Assembly (NCBI GenBank): GCA_030390025.1
Contig: CM059444.1
Coordinates: forward strand, 32,240,001 to 32,304,000
Direction of reading: 5' to 3'
Length of the DNA stretch: 64,000 nt
Source of the DNA: Squalus acanthias
Lineage: Eukaryota
Positions 14,749 to 27,900 of this stretch are shown one piece after another. The notes under the pieces are model-generated. The model was not told where the DNA came from. It searched no databases and saw only the letters and a list, made by a program, of their open reading frames with translations. The stretch's first letter is position 1, and every line of letters starts with the position of its first letter. A program made the position numbers and the translations under genes.

Positions 14749-14936
14749 GGCTGGTTTAGCCCTGGCCAGGTGTTCGTACTGGATGAATACTGTGCACGTT
14801 ATGGAACCAGAGGCTGTCACAGACATCTCTGCTACCTCAATGATTTGCTTGAAAGGGCAGAAAATGGAGCAATGATTGACCCAACCCTGCTTCACTACAG
14901 CTTTGCCTTCTGCGCTTCACATGTTCATGGCAACAG
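14749..14936 (+). CDS. CADPS: CADPS coding exon, 188 nt ([19 protein letters not shown]...ASHVHGN)
   Basis: ttccacag|GGC TGG TTT...GGC AAC AG|gtagag; phase 0-2. Confidence 0.97.
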
Positions 14937-15896
14937 GTAGAGTTCAGTAACAATGTAACGTAAGACACCATAGTCATTCTGATGAACAAAACAGCAGGCT
15001 TTGTATTAGCCTTATGCAGGAGAGATAAACATTTACATTCCAATATTTGTCAGCGATAGACAAGAAGAAAATTAATTCCTGAGAACACAAGAGGCTCTTT
15101 TCCATTCAGTGGTTGTACCCATGTTTTGCATTCCACACTGACACATAACATGGTACAAGTACAGAAATACCCTTCTCAATGTCTTTGTTTTATTTCCAAA
15201 CAAGATGTTTATCAGACATGCGACCTGTATGTATTATCCATGTTGTTTAAAGTATTACATGGAGGTGACACTACCCAAATCAAACAGTAGAAGATTCATT
15301 TAAAGTATGGAATGTTCATATGGTGGGAACAAATCGCATATCGCCAATAGACCACATTATAGGCAAGTACGCAGACATCTCTGATGCTGTGTTGAAGTGT
15401 ACAAGCATATGTTAGTAGTGTAGGCTGCACAGTACAATAGAAAATGTTCTTTTTATAGAAAGATTGTGTTACAAGAATTTGAAGTTGATGATCTCTCACA
15501 TGCTGTAATTTAGAAGAATCAGCACACACTCCCAACATGATAGATAAACGATGTTTCAGTGGAATATTCTAAAATACTGTCTGTATGGAGCCATGCCACT
15601 TTTTATTTAAGCATAATTAAGTTCCATTTGGATTTACTCAACACTTCATGTAAACTAATGCTTAGAGATATGCTGGCTGATTCTGCAGAAGATATATATT
15701 TCATTTTAGTCGGATTTTTTTTTACAGGTGTAACTCTTGTATTAGAAGTGCTTTTGGTGGCTTCTGTTTTCCACTCATTTATTCATTATTCCTTTTTCAT
15801 GTTTTCTTTAGTTTGTTGTACTTTGATTTTTCTTTATTTCTTTCACGCTTCCTTGGTTCTGTTTCTGGCTCTCTACAAACCAACCATCTTTTAAAG

Positions 15897-16067
15897 TGTG
15901 AAAGTGCCAGAATTACTTGTGTCACAGCCAAGTGTAGATGGTGAGGGGGACAAATCACTCAATCCCTCAGCAAATGAGCCAGAGAGTGACCTAAAAAAGG
16001 ACAGAAAGGAGTCTAGAAAAGGTTCTAAAAAGGAATCCAAGTTGCAACCAAAACCGGAGCCAAAAAG
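15897..16067 (+). CDS. CADPS: CADPS 171-nt cassette exon, charged low-complexity insert (SVKVPELL...KKDRKESRKGSKKESKLQPKPEPKR)
   Basis: Very long pyrimidine tract, ttttaaag|T GTG...AAA AG|gtaagt; open frame, phase 2-2; resembles the Lys-rich insert I recall at this position in mammalian CAPS1 isoforms. Confidence 0.85.
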
Positions 16068-18012
16068 GTAAGTGCCATTTTGTGCACAGTTAAAGGTGGT
16101 GTTAAGTGAATAGGAAAAGCTGCACTAGTTTACATAGTAACGATGGTAGCAAATATGAGCAGAAGAAGTGGCAGCAGGTACCTTTATATGCGTATGTTTT
16201 CTTTCCTGTCCGTATTGATTTTTTCCTTTATTTCCATTCTTTAATTTCCTCCTCCCCTTGCACTACACTATATATCAAGAAGATGACCAAGAGATCTTTT
16301 CCAAGACCTCTGCTATTCTTGCTCTGTAGCTGGCCTTAAGGAGGTGTGTGATTAGTCCCTAATTCACTTGACCTCCAATTCTTTGATTCTCCTTGTGGGT
16401 AGATGCCTCATTTTTGCGCTGTGCTTAGCTCTGACAGTTGACATCTCAGAGTTGCTATATAAAGAATTACAAAGGCAAAGCATATCCCAACATAGCAAAT
16501 TGGTACACCAATTCCCTGAGTCTCTAAACCACCCAAGCAGGTATGTTGATGCATTCCTTATTCACTTTTACATATGTCTAACATCACTTAGTGTTTGATA
16601 TGTTGTGTTATATAAAAAGTGCTCTTGAAGAATACCTACATAGGATAAAGAAAACCTCCTGTAACTGAAGTCTGTACTGTTGAAGTAACACATCCAAGGC
16701 TAGCTAGAAGGGTCAACAAGCCAGCTTCACGTGTCACTGTTTTACAAGTGATCCTTTGCATAAATGCATCATAAAAAGTTAGAACAATTATGAGATGTCA
16801 TGGTCGCAAAAACATGGACTTAAAACAGAAACACTGATGTTAATGTGGAAGAAAAATGTGTAGGTACTAGAAATGGATCAAAGTCATATCTGAATATTAG
16901 TCTTTAACCAGTAACCTATGTCTTATTTAATCATCGTGCTGGTTTACCTGAGTATCCATGGTCATGAGTACCTGTGCATATAGAGATTCACAAAAGTAAA
17001 TGACAGGTAACATTTGGTAGTCATACTTAAAACTTAAAATCATAAGAAATAGTAATTTTAAAATTGAGATCATTAGAACACATCTAAGAAAGCAAAAAGT
17101 TGTTATTCAAGCATCTGATGGCTTCAGTTGAAATAGAAATGTAGCCATTTATATTAAAATAAACAGGGTCAAATGTAGGTCTAACTGCATGTAGATTTTA
17201 ATATGTGCTAGGGATAAACATTATCTTTTCATGTGGTGGAGTTGCAGTAAGTTGTCTGTTTGTATTGTGTTATTATTGGGTCAGACAGTGAGACAACAGT
17301 AGCTTGCAGTCAGTCAGAGAGTAGAGAGCGAATGTGATTCAGATGTTACAGGACAGCCTGAAGGTCAAGACTGACAGAATGACAAGCTGTCACCAAGAAG
17401 AGACTAACTAGCTGGTGTCCTAGGTTCCAGTACACTGAAATGGTCTTGCTATCTGATCAATGTCAATGTAGAAAGTAACAAAGGTTTCTGTACAAAAAAT
17501 GTATGTTATTATTTATAAACCTTATATGACATATTAAAATTATTTGACCTATGCGATGCAAAGGATTTACATGCATACTTTTTTGGGGGAGAGCGTTTAG
17601 AAAATTGAAAAAAAATGGGTACATTTAAAATCAGGAAACCCAGTAACTATTATGAATGGAACAGACAAACAATGAAATTAATATTGTTCTAAAAAGTAAT
17701 ATTTCATAACTCCATTTAAATCACCTATACAGAAACATTTTTGTAGCAAATTCCAATGTAAGACAGTTGCAAATCTGTGTAAAAAGTATTTCCCCATTCC
17801 TTTTATATGAATAAATATTGACAGTAGCTCAAATGATGTATAGTATTTTGTTTTGCTATTGCACTACTTTCGTTTTTAAAATTCAGATTTAATTCTTATC
17901 ATTAAACCAGATTTTTATATAATCAAACCAACTCTGCACCCTCAAACACGTTAAATTTCTCTTTCTAATTTGCCCATCATTTTGTAAGAAAGATCCACTA
18001 AGCCACGAAAGA

Positions 18013-18019
18013 TATAAAA
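18013..18019 (+). promoter_or_regulatory. TATA-like box of candidate internal promoter
   Basis: TATAAAA followed by a CpG/GC patch, ~220 nt upstream of the ATG at 18234. Confidence 0.3.
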
Positions 18020-18233
18020 AGTAGCGTAGCGGGGGCTTGATTATTTGTAAATTTTGACAAAAAACATTGGAAATTTTATTATTTGTGACATGGCCCAAGA
18101 TAGGAGACTGTGAGGAGAGTGAAGCTGACAGAACTGGTGCTAACCACTGTGACAAAGACTTGAAAAGCAACCAACATGACATCTTTCCTATCACGCTGCC
18201 GAAAATGTCATCTTTGTGAACGACAGTGAGAAA

Positions 18234-18256
18234 ATGGTTTGCCGAAGTTTTGAAAG
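18234..18256 (+). CDS. CADPS: Coding part of candidate alternative first exon (MVCRSFE-R) of a short CADPS isoform
   Basis: gagaaaATGG strong Kozak; ATG GTT TGC CGA AGT TTT GAA AG|gtagag is phase 2 and joins exon 22613 in frame; in-frame TGA upstream at 18177. Confidence 0.65.
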
Positions 18257-20314
18257 GTAGAGTCGAAAGACGCTCATCATGTCAGATGTAATATAGTCCG
18301 CAGCTGTTTGAGAAAGGAAATCCTAGTGGCCATGACGGGTTTCAGTTGGCAGGCCCTCCGAGACATCGAAACCACTCCAAAAATGGCTACAATTGACCTG
18401 TGGATTGTACTACTCTTGTGGTCAAATACTCGGCTCCCATCACTAGTTCTGCCACATAATAGCTGGCTGTTCACATCTGCTTTGGGAAAAAAAGCTTGGA
18501 TTTCTACAATTATTATAAACAATTAGAATTTAAAAAAGGAATCTAGTTTAAGATTTTGATGGGTTTATGTTTTACTTTCCTTTATTAACTCACAGAGTCC
18601 CTTTTAAATGTACTGTGGAGATAGTAGCTTGACTGTTTTAAGAAAGAAAATCCAGTCCAGTCTTTCCATTTTCTGAACAATACCATAAATGTCATTTTGT
18701 GTTAAATGTTCATCACAGCTTTTATCTCAGGTACCCAAATGTTCTGTAACTGAATGTGCTGGGAGGGATTTCCATTGCACTGTAAGATTAAAGCAAATGT
18801 ACACTAGGTACAGTTAATATTTCCAGTGTGCAAATATTGATTCTTTTTTGTAGGTGATAGTCCATTTTCATTAATATCTTAGTAACGCTTTAATAATTAG
18901 CACATTATTAGCAGGTGAGAATTCCAAATCTCAAACCAAAGGTTTAGTTGAATGATTTAAAGATCTCATCTTTTTCTATTTGAATAAAAAAGAAATGTAT
19001 CACATGGCACTTTTAACAGTAGAAGGGATGCGTATTCAGAGTTGTAAAGCCTTTAATCCAACATGTATATTTTTTGGTTTGTTTCGACAAACATCATTGA
19101 AAGGTCTTGAAAGTATAAGACATATTTATAATGTTATATTCACACTGAGATTTTTTTTACTGTATTTTGAAAGGAAGGGCGTAGCTTGTTACAATAAGCT
19201 TCACCAAAATAAGCGTAAAAAGAATTTGCTTTCCGAGCTCTCGAGTAGGATTTCATGTGGGATGATTTGCCGTATTAACAGCTTTCTATCTTATTGGTCA
19301 CTGCAGCACTGCAGTATAGATTGTAATTTCTGAGCCTAAGGTCACAATTGATGCTTGCAAATAAAGAGAAATAAAGCTGACCAATTAACCCCTGACAGGA
19401 GGTTTATTAGAGGTTCTGTAATCCCTTATCATGCTTTTGTGTTGCCAAACAGGCTGGTGCTGGGGATTTGCACAGCTTAAAGTGTACACTGAAGGAGGCC
19501 TATGGAAAAGGACTGTTTATTCTATTCACAGTCTACTCACACTACAGAAAGGGAGACTGAGCTAGTGTAGACTGGATAGTAAAATACAAATCCCTCTACT
19601 TTGCTTTTGACTGAAGAACCTGGTAATGTTGTTTGTCTGGGCTGTTGCTTCCTTTCGTGAAAGGATTAGGTCGGCCTCTTTCCCTCTTATTATGGATTAT
19701 TGGCTGGTGTAAATATTCAGGAACTATCCATATTGTTTAGCCTGAAGTTGTGAAATAATAAGGAAATGCTTATTTGTGCAGGACTGAATTTGTTCTCTTT
19801 TATAAAACACACTTCATCCAAAACTTAAGCCATATGGGAAATAGCCTGGGAAAAGCAACCTTCTCGTAGTTTTAATGATATGTTCCCTGCTTACTAAGTG
19901 GAAGAGGTCAAAAAGTGGCACTGAGTATTTAACGCAAAGATATTTGAATTGTGCAGTGAAGATTTTTTTTTAAAACTGCAGTTTGTCATCTTTAAAATCC
20001 ATGAACAAATGTAAGGCAAAAATGCAGATTTTCATTTTTTACATTTTTAGCTCTTTTTAATTCAATGAAGATGACATACACCCTTTAGATAGTTTAGATG
20101 CTAAATTTTATATTCACAGTTTACAGCAGCACAAAGTATGCTTAAAGCACTTCTGTCAGTGCTATCATAATAGTATGACAATGTTCCAGTAGTGTGACTG
20201 CAGGTTAGCCTCTGTAGCAAGGATGATTTCTTACGGTGTAAAACTGGGAAGGGATGGCACCGTCAATAGAAAAGAAAGTTATTTTATGTGAGCATGCTTT
20301 TCTTATCAGAAAAT

Positions 20315-22107
20315 GGGCCGAACTTACAGGCCTGCCGCCCAGCGGAACCAGGGCACTAGCGGCCTGAAAGTGGAGCGTAGTAGCTTACCGCCGCGGTGAC
20401 CATTGCCGTTTTGCTGGGGTCCTTTGAGTAGGTGGCGCAAAGAAAACACAAAGAGCTGATTGAAGTATTTAAATCAGGGTCTTACGATGTCAATAGGATT
20501 CTGATGCCAGTTCTGGACTGCACTGGGCAGGACGTGCGCCCTTGTAGCTCCGGCCCGTATCAGCTGGAGGCTGGGCCAATGAGGAGACGAAAGGTAGGTT
20601 TGGCTATATCTTTGTGGGGCCAGGAGGAGCAGGAGTGCTCCTACAGACTTCACAAAACCAGGCTGGGCCGCTGCTGTTCTCCCTTCCCCCCACCCCCTCC
20701 TTCCCCAATATCAGGCTAGTATATTACCCCCAATCCCATGATCCCTAACAAAATTAGGGCTCATGGGATTGGGGTAATATACTAGCATGGATTGAGGATT
20801 GGTTAACGGACAGAAAACCGAGAGTAGGAATAAGCGGGTCATTTTTGGGTTGGCAGGCTGTAACTAGTCGAGTACCGCAAGGATCAGTGCTTGGGCCTCA
20901 GCTATTCACAATCTACAGCAATGATTTGGATGAGGGGACCAAATATAATATATCCAAGTTTGCTGATGATACAAAGCTGGGTGGGAATGTAAGTTGTGAG
21001 GAGGATGCAACGAGGCTTCAAGGGGATATAGACAGGCTAAGTGAGTGGGCAAGAACATGGCAAATGGAATATAATGTGGAGAAATGTGAAGTTATCCACT
21101 TTGGTAGGAAAAATAGAAAAGCAGAGTATTTTTTAAATGGTGAGAGATTGGGAAATGTTGGTGTTCAGAGGGACCTGGGTGTCCTTGTACACGAATCACT
21201 GAAAGTTAACATGCAGGTGCAGCAAGCAATTGGGAAAGCAAATGGGATGTTGGCCTTTATTACAAGAGGATTTGAGTATCAGAGTAAAGACGTCTTACTG
21301 CAATTATATAGGGCCCTGGTGAGACCACACCTGGAGTATGTGTACAGTTTTGGTCTCCTTACCTAAGGAAGGATATACTTGCCATAGAGAGAGTGCAACA
21401 AAGGTTCACCAGACTGATTCCTGGGATGGGGGGATTATCCTATGAGGAGAGATTGAGTAGACTAGGCCTATATTATCTAGAGTTCAGAAGAATGAGAGGT
21501 GATTTCATTGAAACATACAAAATTCTTACAGGGCTTGACAGGGTAGGTGCAGGGAGGATGTTTCCCCTGGCTGGGGAGTCTAGAACCAGGGGTCACAGTC
21601 TCAGAATAAGGGGTCGGCCATTTAGGACTGATTTGAGGAGAAATTTCTTCACTCAGAGGGTGGTGAATCTTTGGAATTCTCTGCCCCAGAGGGCTGTGGA
21701 GGCTCAGTCGTTGAGTATATTCAAGACAGAGATCGATAGAGTTTTTGATATTAAGGGAATCAAGGGATATGGGGATAGTGCAGGAAAGTGGAGTTGAGGT
21801 AGAAGATCAGCCATGATCTTATTGAATGGCGGAGCAGGTTCGAGGGGCTGAATGGCCTACTCCTGCTCCTATTTCTTATGTTCTTTTGTTCCTCCTACTT
21901 ACCGTCTTGCAGCCAGGAGGCCAGCTGGGCCGAAGCTGGCAGGCTGCCCCAGGGCGCTCGATTATCTGGCCGCTGCCCACCGGCCCAGCGCTAATGAGGC
22001 CCGGATCTCAAAATGGACCAGGCCTCATGTTGGGACGACTGGTGCTGGCCGGCGGGCATGTCCACCTGCTAGCCGCCCGAAGTCCGCTCAGTGGGAAACT
22101 CCACCCC
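20315..22107. mobile_element. MITE interrupted by a CR1 insertion
   Basis: GC-rich halves 20315-20714 and ~21893-22107, degenerate TIRs, aat on both flanks. Confidence 0.65.
20749..21890 (+). mobile_element. 5'-truncated CR1 LINE (RT domain to 3' UTR), relatively young, frameshifted
   Basis: ORFs 20845..21366 (VPQGSVLGP, KFADDTKL) and 21393..21797 (RTRGHSL, FFTQRVVNLWNSLP); tail gaatggcctactcctgctcctatttcttatgttct. Confidence 0.95.
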
Positions 22108-22612
22108 AATGTCTTTTTAATAGCCAGGGTAACATTAAATCAATGTCTAGCCCCTTCTGGGGCTTTGTTTGCACAAGGTAATATCCCCCAATGGACCCAT
22201 GCACCAAACCTTAGTAGAACCATAAGAAAATAAAAATGGCTGGGACTTTTTTTGTCTTTTAATCAATAAGGTGTTGAACAGTATTTCTGCCTCATAACAT
22301 GAACAGTGTTTAGCAACTTCACAAAAACATATTCGATGGCAAAAATAAAACCGAGTATTATTTAATTATAATTTGCTAATCTGTTGTCAAATAACTCAGG
22401 TAACTGGTTAAAAGCAGATCTTCCAAATGAAATTCAGCTTTCCTGCATTGCTGGAGAACTTCAGTATAAAAGCACAAAAGTATACATCATTTATACCACA
22501 GCCCTAAGATGTGGACATATTTTTAAGTACTGAACTGAATGCTGCAAAGGTAGGAGTGAGTGAATAGAATTATGAAAAAAACGCTGCTAAATGTTATTTT
22601 CTTTGTTTCCAG

Positions 22613-22714
22613 GCCCGATGGAATAGGAACTGTAACAGTGGAAGAAAAAGAACGTTTCGAGGAGATCAAGGAGAGACTGCGCTTACTACTTGAGAATCAG
22701 ATTACTCACTTTAG
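22613..22714 (+). CDS. CADPS: CADPS coding exon, 102 nt ([34 protein letters not shown])
   Basis: tttccag|G CCC GAT...TTT AG|gtgaat; phase 2-2. Confidence 0.97.
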
Positions 22715-24020: not shown

Positions 24021-24197
24021 GGTATAGTTACTCCTGTTCCTCAAGGAGAAGTTAAAGTTGTCATTCGGAAATGTCTGGAGAAAGCTGCTCTAGTGAACTA
24101 CACACGACTTTCTGAGTACGCCAAAATCGAAGGTAAGTAGCAGAGAGTTTTCTTATGAATGCAGTTCACTAGATGAAACACTTGGAGACAGATTATT
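24021..24197 (+). pseudogene. Partial duplicate (pseudo-exon) of CADPS exon 24799-24922 plus its donor and 65 nt of intron
   Basis: Colinear with 24811-24987 at offset 790; 6 mismatches in 177 nt by manual count; native acceptor and first 12 coding nt absent. Confidence 0.92.
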
Positions 24198-24434
24198 CAG
24201 CTACCTATCTTCTTTAATTCACTTTGTTTACATAAGCACCACATGGATGTGTAAGTATTGGAAGGTATTGAAATGCGTAATAAGTTACCGTTCTGTTAAT
24301 CTACAGTAATAAGAAGGCTGAGGTTATCCTGTGAACTGCGCTTCTTGTGGTCAACAAAGTCAACCCGGATACATACTGACCATTTTAAAAACATTCTGTT
24401 GAAGAATAATTAATAAAATCTATCTTGCTGACAG

Positions 24435-24498
24435 GTACTGCTTTCCTTTTGGACGACCCGAGGGTGCATTAAAGGCTACACTGTCTCTCCTGGAGAGG
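24435..24498 (+). CDS. CADPS: CADPS coding exon, 64 nt ([21 protein letters not shown])
   Basis: ctgacag|G TAC TGC...GAG AGG|gtgagt; phase 2-0. Confidence 0.97.
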
Positions 24499-24798: not shown

Positions 24799-24922
24799 GT
24801 GCTGATGAAGGATATAGTAACTCCTGTTCCTCAAGAAGAAGTTAAAGTTGTCATTCGGAAATGTCTGGAGAAAGCTGCTCTAGTGAACTACACACGACTT
24901 TCTGAGTACGCCAAAATCGAAG
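24799..24922 (+). CDS. CADPS: CADPS coding exon, 124 nt ([41 protein letters not shown])
   Basis: ttgcaaag|GTG CTG...GAA G|gtaagt; phase 0-1. Confidence 0.97.
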
Positions 24923-27900
24923 GTAAGTAGCAGAGAGTTTACTTAGGAATGCAGTTCACTAGATGAAACACTTGGAGGCAGATTATTAAGAAAACTCCAT
25001 ATGTAAACGAGTGTTGATTCAGAAATGTTGTATTTTTTTAAGAATATATAGTCCTAAAAATAAAATCTGTATATTTTATAAGCAAATTAAAGACTTCTTA
25101 GTGACTTACAGTTACTAAATATTTAGTTGGAATTGTTTGCTTATTTTCAAAACAAGATTCAGGCTATGGTATTTGTACTGTTGGTGAGTTTAGTTTAGCT
25201 GTAAGGAAGTAAATATACATTAGCGCTAAAGATTTATGAGCTGTGCATTGCAGATCTGACAGGTGAAGCAATGGACTGTATTGTTAATAGTGTCAGGTAA
25301 TCATAGCAACCTATATCTGAAACAGGTTTTTTTTAGTTGAAATATCTGGGAGTCAATGATAAATTTTAGAGTGCAGTGTTTCAATATACGCAAACTCGAA
25401 CCACAATAGCTCTAGACTTATAAATTACCAGCAGTAATGTGATTTGCCACAATCCAATAGTTTAGATTTGGAAATCTCTAAAGAAAGTGACCCTCATTAC
25501 CAGATACACTATGCAACAAAAACAGAAATCTCGAGAACAGTTTAAACAACATTTTACTATCACCTGCAGTTATGAAAAGGTAAGCTTTTTCTGTATCATC
25601 ACTGGAATTTGAAACATTTCTGAAGGACTGTAAATTATATTGTGCTGCAAAGTGAGATAAGACAGAATGGTAACATTGGATCTACTGTTACTTATATTCA
25701 TGTCCAAGAAGGTCAGAAATATGTAAGATCATGTAATGGTGTTGCACTGTATTGGAGCATTAATGCACAGTGCCACAGAATGAAGGGACACAGCTTTGAT
25801 TTCCCACACTTGCTCAGTTTCTGATTTCAGCCATGTTGCTGTCAGGTGGCACTGAGAAGAGACAGGCACATCCTCACAAAGGGAGTGAAAATAGGACAGG
25901 GAGGCATCCACAGGCCACAATCACACACCATGCTAGGAGCCACATCAGGCAACCTGTGACAGGATCACCCAGTCTCTCATCCAGTGTCGTTTCAGGGCCT
26001 GGATAGAGTAAAAGAAATGGGAAGGGAAGAGAAGTAAACACAAAGGGAGTGAATTTCTGTGGGCTCTCCCGCTTGTCCACCATACTTTGGTGCAAGAGCT
26101 TCAGAAACCCCAGAATAACACCATTTACATCGTTTTTCCAGGATTTCTGCAGCTCTTCCACTGGAGCTATGCCAAACGAGCTGGAAAACCTCGTGGAAAT
26201 TAACCCCATAACATTTAAAATAGAAAGTCCCCCTCAAAAGACAGATACCTAAAAGAGAGAATCATCTAAAAAATGGAAGGATTGCTTCCTGCTTTCTAAT
26301 TCAAATCTGTCTAATAAGGAATATCTGTACGATGATAGTTTAGCAGAGTGTCTGTTGAAGTCAAGTTCATATTTGATTTGTTTATGTTTATTGTATTCAC
26401 AGATTTTTAACCTTCTATTCAACAGGATTTTGTGAATTCTTATACTGTTGATGTGAAGATGGGGAGAGTGCAATTTTTTTACTTTCAAAGCAAGATATGA
26501 AAGTGGCATTTGATCTTTCTGACTATGGACCTTATATACTGATGTGTTTTCATTTTGGTTGACAAATGTTTTTAATGATTGACACGCATCAAATTGCTTT
26601 TAATGGTCGACCAGTCTGTCCTCACCCCCTTGCTTACACCATTACAGGTCTACAGTTTGCATGGGTGAATCACTAGTTTCTTGTGTCCTGATATGAGTAA
26701 GACATTTCTGTTAGTTGAATAGACCTGACACATAGATAAGAATATAAACCATGGCATCTTTTAGTGTTAAGACTTTTAGAATGATTCATCAAATGACAAT
26801 CAACCACAATTGTATCTTTATGGAAACTTCTAGTTTTTGAAGAGTAAAAGTGTGTGAACAGCTGCTGAAAGGTGTTAGTCTCGTATGTTTTGTAATGTAA
26901 CAGTATTCTTTTATCTGGTTGTTATCACAATGCTAACTGTGTACTAAAGGTACAGGTTTCATTTAGTGAGAATAGTTAGGCAACAAATAGAGAAAATGTT
27001 TGAGTTAAGAATTGAGCACTAAAGGCATTTTGCAGCAACACTTTGAAAAATAGGTGGAGAATTTGAAGTTTGTTATTTTGATGAATTGAGGTTTAAAATT
27101 ATATTTCTTATAGTTTTGTCAGTAACATAAAGTTGTGGAATGATGTAAATAAACTAACATTTTTTTATTGTTTGAAAATGTTAGATTCTTACTTAGCTGG
27201 TGAGCTCTGCAGTTGACTGTAAGTTTAGACAGAGCTGAGTGCATTTCTAGTAAGCTTGAGCACATGATGGGTATGTGTAAGTAAAAATGCATTCAATTCC
27301 AGTGTAGATCCCATAGTGTTTGATTATTTCCCTTTTGTGCCTCAATTCTTTCTGGTTCCGTTAATGTACCCTCTTTTGCACTGTGACTTTTAGGTCTGGG
27401 AATACTATGAAGCAACCAAATACTTTTTTTCCAGCTCTTTGTTCAGAGAAGTAATTCATTCCGCACTACCTGTTCTTTTCCGCTTCTCTCCTTTCTTGTT
27501 TTATATTGACTTAGTCACTTTTTTATATTCCTAAAAAAGTGGCTGTAGAAGTGCCTAGTGACCAGCATGCAGGGATTGTGGTCTCAGCAACCCAGCATTC
27601 ACCAACTGCATGTACCAGGCTTCCTTACATGGGCATAGTCCATTCTGTGCTTTATTGAAAATAGCTCAAATACACTGACTGAAATTTTAAAATAGACCAG
27701 TACGTTCCCTTCCCAGTTGTTTCATTATTGATATGCAAGGATTTTATTCAAAGCTGAATTGGCTATAGTTGATATCCTTTTGAAAATATGGTTTACCATG
27801 TAGTCAATCAAAATCAAAAAGTAGTTTAATAGTACAGTGGTAGTGACCTAACTCTGGAAGTTTCAATCGGTTGGGAAAGTGCTTAAGACTGTGCCTATGA

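Follow-up and report, generated by a model that had tools for sequence, protein, structure and literature searches.

A candidate internal first exon in the CADPS gene of Squalus acanthias that would encode the C-terminal half of CAPS1

The middle of the CADPS gene, which encodes CAPS1, occupies the + strand of a 64,000-nucleotide stretch of the Squalus acanthias genome (contig CM059444.1, positions 32,240,001 to 32,304,000; hereafter the window), and one of its introns carries a short patch with the anatomy of a transcription start followed by a first exon. Our best explanation, to which we give about even credence, is that this patch holds an internal promoter and a first exon that splices in frame into the gene to yield a half-size CAPS1, and that the product would act as a vesicle-bound competitor rather than as a priming factor independent of phosphatidylinositol 4,5-bisphosphate (PIP2). 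CAPS1 is nearly indispensable for the release of neuropeptides and hormones, and the importance of its MUN half on its own is disputed, in that an N-terminal-half form of CAPS2 rescues partly and a C-terminally truncated CAPS1 does not. A natural C-terminal-half CAPS1, if it exists, would directly test the role of the MUN half, would be missed by knock-outs and antibodies directed against the early exons, and would give secretion a further regulator encoded within the gene. The candidate is of a common kind, an N-terminally shortened isoform made from an internal promoter, although as an instance of that kind it is unproven; the exon may already stand in human isoform catalogues.

The exons of the window were tested for gene identity and encode CAPS1, not CAPS2. 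Their best named matches are CAPS1 proteins of cartilaginous fish (sharks and rays), nine of them differ from the closest, sawshark CAPS1, at 3 residues, and the CADPS2 paralogue lies on another contig. By tblastn, with boundaries chosen near the alignment ends and without a transcript basis, CADPS exons lie at about 10610, 14749, 15897 (a cassette), 22613, 24435, 24799, 38533, 48681, 51120, 58118, 60820 and 61533. The candidate exon sits in the 7.7-kb intron between the HVHGN exon, which ends at 14936, and the RPDGIG exon, which begins at 22613. The features of this interval are as follows.

14749..14936, + strand: upstream constitutive CADPS exon, ending in HVHGN, phase 2 (tblastn, 100% to shark CAPS1; donor at 14936)
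15897..16067, + strand: 171-nt lysine-rich cassette exon, which some full-length isoforms insert between the HVHGN and RPDGIG exons (tblastn, 86% to the full-length CAPS1 P0083)
17990..18440, no strand: patch of raised CpG, free of repeats (no match to any other part of the window)
18013..18019, + strand: candidate TATA box TATAAAA, one of 10 copies of this word on the window's + strand (from the sequence)
18090..18113, + strand: upstream open reading frame (uORF) 1, with 7 codons, a strong context (G at both -3 and +4) and the reading frame of the main ATG, stopping at 18113
18176..18229, + strand: uORF2, 17 codons, ending 4 nt before the main ATG
18205..18219, + strand: uORF3, 4 codons, nested inside uORF2
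18234..18256, + strand: coding part of the candidate first exon, MVCRSFE (7 codons) plus AG, phase 2 (from the sequence)
18257..18262, + strand: candidate donor GTAGAG, score 5.8 (splice matrix)
22613..22714, + strand: shared downstream CADPS exon (RPDGIG exon), strong acceptor, score 12.5 (tblastn, splice matrix)

A sequence-only reading of this stretch had proposed the promoter and first exon, and most of the anatomy that it named is borne out: the TATAAAA at 18013, the uORF at 18176-18229, the ATG at 18234 in strong Kozak context (A at -3, G at +4) and the donor at 18257 are all present. The in-frame splice to the RPDGIG exon likewise holds as far as the sequence goes, since the donor after 18256 lies in phase 2 and so fits the acceptor at 22613, with the frame open from the ATG when tested; unspliced, that frame terminates at 18260. 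Also as claimed, the patch is free of repeats and relatively rich in CpG. It has no self-match in the window, positions 17990-18330 match a single place in the 3.7-Gb genome (in a search that skips very common words), and the observed-to-expected CpG ratio across 17990-18440 reaches 0.68 (flanks, 0.21 and 0.25), which places the patch in the top 5% of 451-nt windows by ratio and in the top 10% by CpG count. Because its GC content is only 0.43, the patch is not a CpG island. An Rfam search of 18215-22700 returned no match. The candidate donor (18257-18263) and the real donor at 14937-14943 have an identical AG plus first seven intron bases, a likeness between two sites that would both splice toward 22613 and that may reflect either chance or an old duplication of an exon end.

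The predicted short CAPS1 would consist of 7 new and 528-616 shared residues, 535-623 in all. It would lose about 730 N-terminal residues, comprising the DID, the C2 domain (385-484), the PH domain (489-588) and about five front helices of the MUN rod, and it would keep the Pfam MUN region (from about 803), including the crystallised DAMH part (827-1048)/MHD1, together with the C-terminal vesicle-binding end. The proposal that only the MUN and vesicle-binding half is made thus stands for the loss of C2 and PH and fails for an intact MUN rod, since the front helices go as well. When a near-full-length shark CAPS1 (P0007) is modelled, the junction, at residue 620, falls in a 12-residue loop (617-628) between two helices, where the local predicted local distance difference test score (pLDDT) is about 67-91; the whole model scores 49.9 and its N-terminal half is poor. 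A 57-residue cassette is naturally inserted at this loop. The C-terminal half alone, represented by a teleost stand-in that starts at the RPDGIG exon (P0102), is modelled as an all-helical rod (pLDDT 62.5), and the top 7 Foldseek matches of this model are all Munc13 MUN structures (best E 2.6e-6). Pfam MUN, Foldseek and VIA-align agree in placing it among MUN/CATCHR rods, and a profile search of PDB sequences matched only the CAPS1 DAMH chain. The MUN domain of Munc13-1 is described as starting at 828, and a fragment from 933, five helices fewer, was the first to be crystallised (excerpts of PMC5344669); the fragment from 933 has been used in SNARE transition assays (excerpts of PMC6325239). 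Since the cut falls in a loop and the start lies near that of the stable Munc13-1 MUN(933-1531), the short CAPS1 would probably fold, a prediction that applies equally to every exon spliced here and does not prove that this one is used.

Published domain studies, cited here from excerpts, indicate how such a product might behave. The last 135 residues of CAPS are required for dense-core vesicle residence and docking (PMC4750925), and the fragment CAPS(859-1073) competes with the full-length protein for binding to SNAREs (PMC3849599). PIP2 is bound by C2-PH and acidic membranes by DID (PMC12702071), the active CAPS dimer forms through C2 (PMC5076532), and point mutants of C2 or PH localise normally at synapses and rescue only 20% of release (PMC5589909). 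By this reckoning the short form would keep both the C-terminal part needed for vesicle residence and the DAMH/MHD1 part that binds SNAREs, and would be unable to bind PIP2 through C2-PH or to dimerise through C2. Because it would lack DID, C2 and PH, it would load onto vesicles without priming, occupying vesicle and SNARE sites as a competitive brake. The three uORFs might, on a weaker footing, hold its output low. The sequence-only reading had offered a dominant negative or a PIP2-independent regulator; the published domain data fit a competitor better and a PIP2-independent primer less well. A dominant negative that poisons dimers was rejected, because the active dimer needs C2, which the short form would lack. 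Priming independent of PIP2 was rejected as the main function, since C2 and PH mutants barely rescue, and it appears less likely, the in vitro activity of Munc13-1 MUN(933) leaving it some weight.

We compared each signal with its background frequency, using splice matrices built from general vertebrate frequencies. The donor score of 5.8 lies within the range of real CADPS donors (2.5-12.1) and is matched or exceeded by 31 of 452 intron GTs. A Kozak ATG with an open frame and a phase-2 donor of at least this strength was counted 39 times over 248 kb of sequence (the window and 60 kb of CADPS2, each on both strands), or about 1.2 times per such intron. On the + strand of the window (64 kb), the candidate is the only one of 51 ATG-donor ends that combines Kozak context, TATA box and phase-2 donor. 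This, together with the matching phase, the raised CpG and the single genome match, speaks for the first exon. The uORFs are at background in number, with 3 ATGs in a 191-nt span for which the window mean is 3.9, and in spacing, since a uORF likewise ends 0-10 nt ahead of 238 of 1313 ATGs; their count was rejected as evidence. Because the signals are singly close to chance, the anatomy of the candidate is suggestive, not decisive.

A number of observations weigh against the internal-promoter explanation, and they are gathered in this paragraph and the next. Adding a TATAWAW 40-300 nt upstream to the ATG-donor combination leaves 6 cases, or about 0.15 expected per such intron, a count that includes the candidate itself and one real CADPS2 exon and that concerns a combination picked after the fact. 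No initiator-like motif lies 22-40 nt past the TATA box at 18013. Two uORFs in adequate or strong context, one of them ending 4 nt before the main ATG, would hinder translation from a start near 18043. The branch-point-bearing acceptor at 17989, considered below, gives the donor at 18256 an alternative use. The structural comparison counts in favour, residue 11 of P0102 aligning to Munc13-1 residue 942 of 5uf7 (VIA-align Z 13.7, root-mean-square deviation 9.9, 405 residues aligned), but this Z is close to what the arrangement of helices in a bundle can produce by itself, and the alignment is bounded by 5uf7, which begins at 942. A blastn comparison with the 16-kb CADPS2 intron (G000:C11:74249578-74265836) found no counterpart of the candidate exon, nor of the lysine-rich cassette, only short chance matches and ones resembling long interspersed nuclear elements; that intron holds several ATG-donor pairs, none MVCRS-like and none with both Kozak context and a TATA box.

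Protein records point the same way. Among 591 retrieved proteins (the best 120 of 6180, of 340 and of 188 matches, the best 150 of 679 representatives, and at most 15 listed members for each of 28 clusters), none has an MVCRS-like start, and 401 of them cover the junction. Upstream of it, 271 of the 401 carry the canonical exon, 29 the lysine-rich cassette and 73 other sequence; the remaining 28 start within 14 residues of the junction, and most of these look like gene-caller read-through of intron ends and were given no weight as support. The test is blunt, in that short isoforms hide under longer cluster members and, for example, 15 of 40 and 15 of 48 members were listed; the small shark and skate clusters, which were listed whole, contain no member with an MVCRS start. 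A killifish RefSeq model (XP_054594008.1, P0581; 550 residues) counts in favour, having a Met directly before the RPDGIG exon, but all three models seen for the killifish CADPS locus are 5'-truncated, and for this reason it may be an annotation artefact. Short CADPS models of croaker (P0431) and sheep (P0206) begin two exons later, and all the short models of the three species may be truncated gene models. In the open literature we found no C-terminal-half CAPS1, no internal CADPS promoter, and neither spelling of the peptide nor the UniProt isoform names, and a cDNA accession turned up only as the name of an array probe; tables of isoforms or of cap analysis of gene expression in subscription papers or supplements may list this exon. 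The excerpted text of PMC5589909 states that, as of 2017, CAPS-1 was not known to have isoforms comparable to the short ones of CAPS-2, and, as excerpted, PMC13232204 concerns a different CADPS exon and PMC8173385 an alternative terminator. A putative human CADPS isoform beginning MVCRSLA-RPDGIG, named by the sequence-only reading, was found neither in the retrieved proteins nor in the open literature.

Words of the patch recur in other sequence data. Of 28 sampled 31-mers from 17990-18300, at least 6 are shared by 17 of the 24 listed runs, these 17 bearing 9 organism labels and coming from 10 studies. The shares range from 0.21 to 0.79, three runs with small and four with zero shares fall outside the count, and the comparison had no control stretch. 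None of these runs is recorded as RNA and 14 are guessed to be RNA. Such sharing, which we count in favour of the first exon, indicates that close relatives carry the sequence of the patch, and it speaks neither to selection nor to expression.

Two further sites enter into the alternatives.

17963..17988, + strand: site resembling an acceptor (branch-point match, pyrimidine tract, AG); an exon of 268 nt running from here to 18256 would shift the frame
18227..18256, + strand: rival reading as an in-frame microexon of 30 nt, its AG weak (acceptor score 0.1, pyrimidines 45%)

The claim that no convincing acceptor lies upstream of the candidate exon has to be withdrawn. The AG before 17989 is preceded at 20-26 nt by a YNYTRAY branch-point match (at 17963) and by 73% pyrimidines; both occur together at 8 of the 555 AGs in the intron. 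On the matrix this site scores higher than 4 of the 12 acceptors of the CADPS gene presumed to be real. It would permit a hybrid or cassette exon without excluding a transcription start. Spliced from this site, an exon 17989-18256 would span 268 nt and stop after 4 codons, which by sequence alone is the form of a poison exon; an acceptor at 17887 with the same donor would give 370 nt and a stop after 6 codons. It is conceivable, if unlikely, that the patch is a poison cassette exon, opened by the acceptor at 17989 (or 17887) and closed by the donor at 18256, whose frameshift leads to nonsense-mediated decay and tunes the level of CAPS1, the TATA box and ATG being incidental or the exon a hybrid used both ways. 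Such an exon would account for the absence of the MVCRS peptide from protein records, and the CpG-raised patch starts at this very AG; on the other hand, the site is an AAG acceptor with a score of 2.9, which 50 of 561 intron AGs equal on the matrix alone, and the phase-correct Kozak ATG just before the donor is left unexplained. We hold it similarly doubtful that the patch is a conserved intronic enhancer, or another non-transcribed regulatory element of CADPS, with ATG, donor and TATA box present by chance. Each signal is at or near background, the single copy, raised CpG and words shared with other organisms would suit any constrained element, E-box motifs stand at 18283 and 18301, downstream of the donor, and no protein record carries the peptide. 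An enhancer does not, however, predict that the one combination of Kozak context, TATA box and donor on the + strand should fall here in the needed phase, nor that the cut should fall at a structural boundary, although the latter is shared by any exon at this junction.

The remaining alternatives appear much weaker. That 18227-18256 is an in-frame 30-nt neural microexon, lengthening the loop of full-length CAPS1 by 10 residues, is extremely improbable: the frame is open, the length is a multiple of 3, the loop tolerates the 57-residue cassette, and CADPS2 has an SRRM3-regulated microexon elsewhere (10.1101/2024.06.13.598849, in excerpt), but the acceptor, with the score and pyrimidine content listed above, has no branch-point match, and none of the 146 junction-covering proteins of at least 1200 residues contains the insert expected of an SRRM3/4-type microexon. 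We regard it as very improbable that the patch is unconstrained intron sequence devoid of function, a view that suits the chance expectation for the signal combination and under which the shared words may reflect slow evolution of cartilaginous fish; a repeat-free patch of raised CpG in an otherwise depleted intron argues against it. A more elaborate possibility, improbable in our judgement, is that a single ancient hybrid exon splits CAPS1 in two. Used internally through the acceptor at 17989, it would end the DID-C2-PH half and silence the full-length protein; used as a first exon, it would launch the MUN/vesicle half, under a leader that lets it be translated only when initiation factor is scarce, with a short uORF followed by a blocking one (62 nt to the blocking ATG and 120 nt to the main ATG). 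Were this so, neurons and endocrine cells of vertebrates would hold a stress-induced, vesicle-resident brake on dense-core release encoded within CADPS itself. The internal first exon with a competitor product nevertheless remains our best explanation: it is a good candidate, with real sequence features and a plausible product predicted to fold, set against one overlooked acceptor.

Several other features of the gene were observed alongside. The lysine-rich cassette exon (15897-16067) is present in protein models of shark, skate, snake, pig and bird, and its acceptor is the lowest-scoring of the CADPS gene. Exon 24435-24498, two steps past the candidate start, contains the sole invariant block of a 67-sequence CAPS alignment; it lies outside the Pfam MUN model, and the short form would retain this most conserved segment of the family. 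Positions 24023-24200 and 24813-24990 are identical at 172 of 178 bases, a recent partial duplication of a CADPS coding exon, and the copy, which keeps a donor without an acceptor and sits upstream of the preceding exon, is either a pseudo-exon or an assembly artefact. Within the intron itself, 20750-21890 is a degenerate retroposon fragment resembling reverse transcriptase, apparently of CR1/L2 type by its peptide, and it matches other parts of the window and the CADPS2 region at 68-85%; at its edge, 20702-20798 forms an imperfect palindrome, 83% self-complementary over 97 bases.

Several known systems, natural and engineered, bear comparison with the candidate. Full-length shark and ray CAPS1 (P0046, P0083; PF25341 C2_CAPS, PF00169 PH, PF06292 MUN) is a product of the same gene and would share everything from exon 22613 on. 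The short mouse forms CAPS2d-f are, like the candidate product, natural half-size CAPS proteins, with low expression and a debated function (excerpts of PMC1853102), and rescue by CAPS2e is cited in excerpts of PMC5589909 and PMC12702071; whereas CAPS2d-f retain the N-terminal DID/C2/PH half through alternative last exons, the candidate would supply the complementary C-terminal half through an alternative first exon. The C. elegans forms UNC-13S and UNC-13L offer a second likeness, as long and short products of a MUN-family priming-factor gene that differ at the N terminus and in localisation (PMC5851683, in excerpt), but UNC-13S retains its priming activity along with C1, C2B and the complete MUN, whereas the candidate product would lose every module that binds plasma-membrane lipid. 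The killifish CADPS isoform X3 (XP_054594008.1) starts at the same exon junction, with only a Met in front and no MVCRS-like peptide. Finally, Munc13-1 MUN(933-1407,EF,1453-1531) (PDB 4Y21/5UF7/6A30) has the same fold and, by structural alignment, about the same N-terminal boundary, although it is an engineered fragment from a paralogous family, 14-16% identical, that is active in vitro at micromolar levels.

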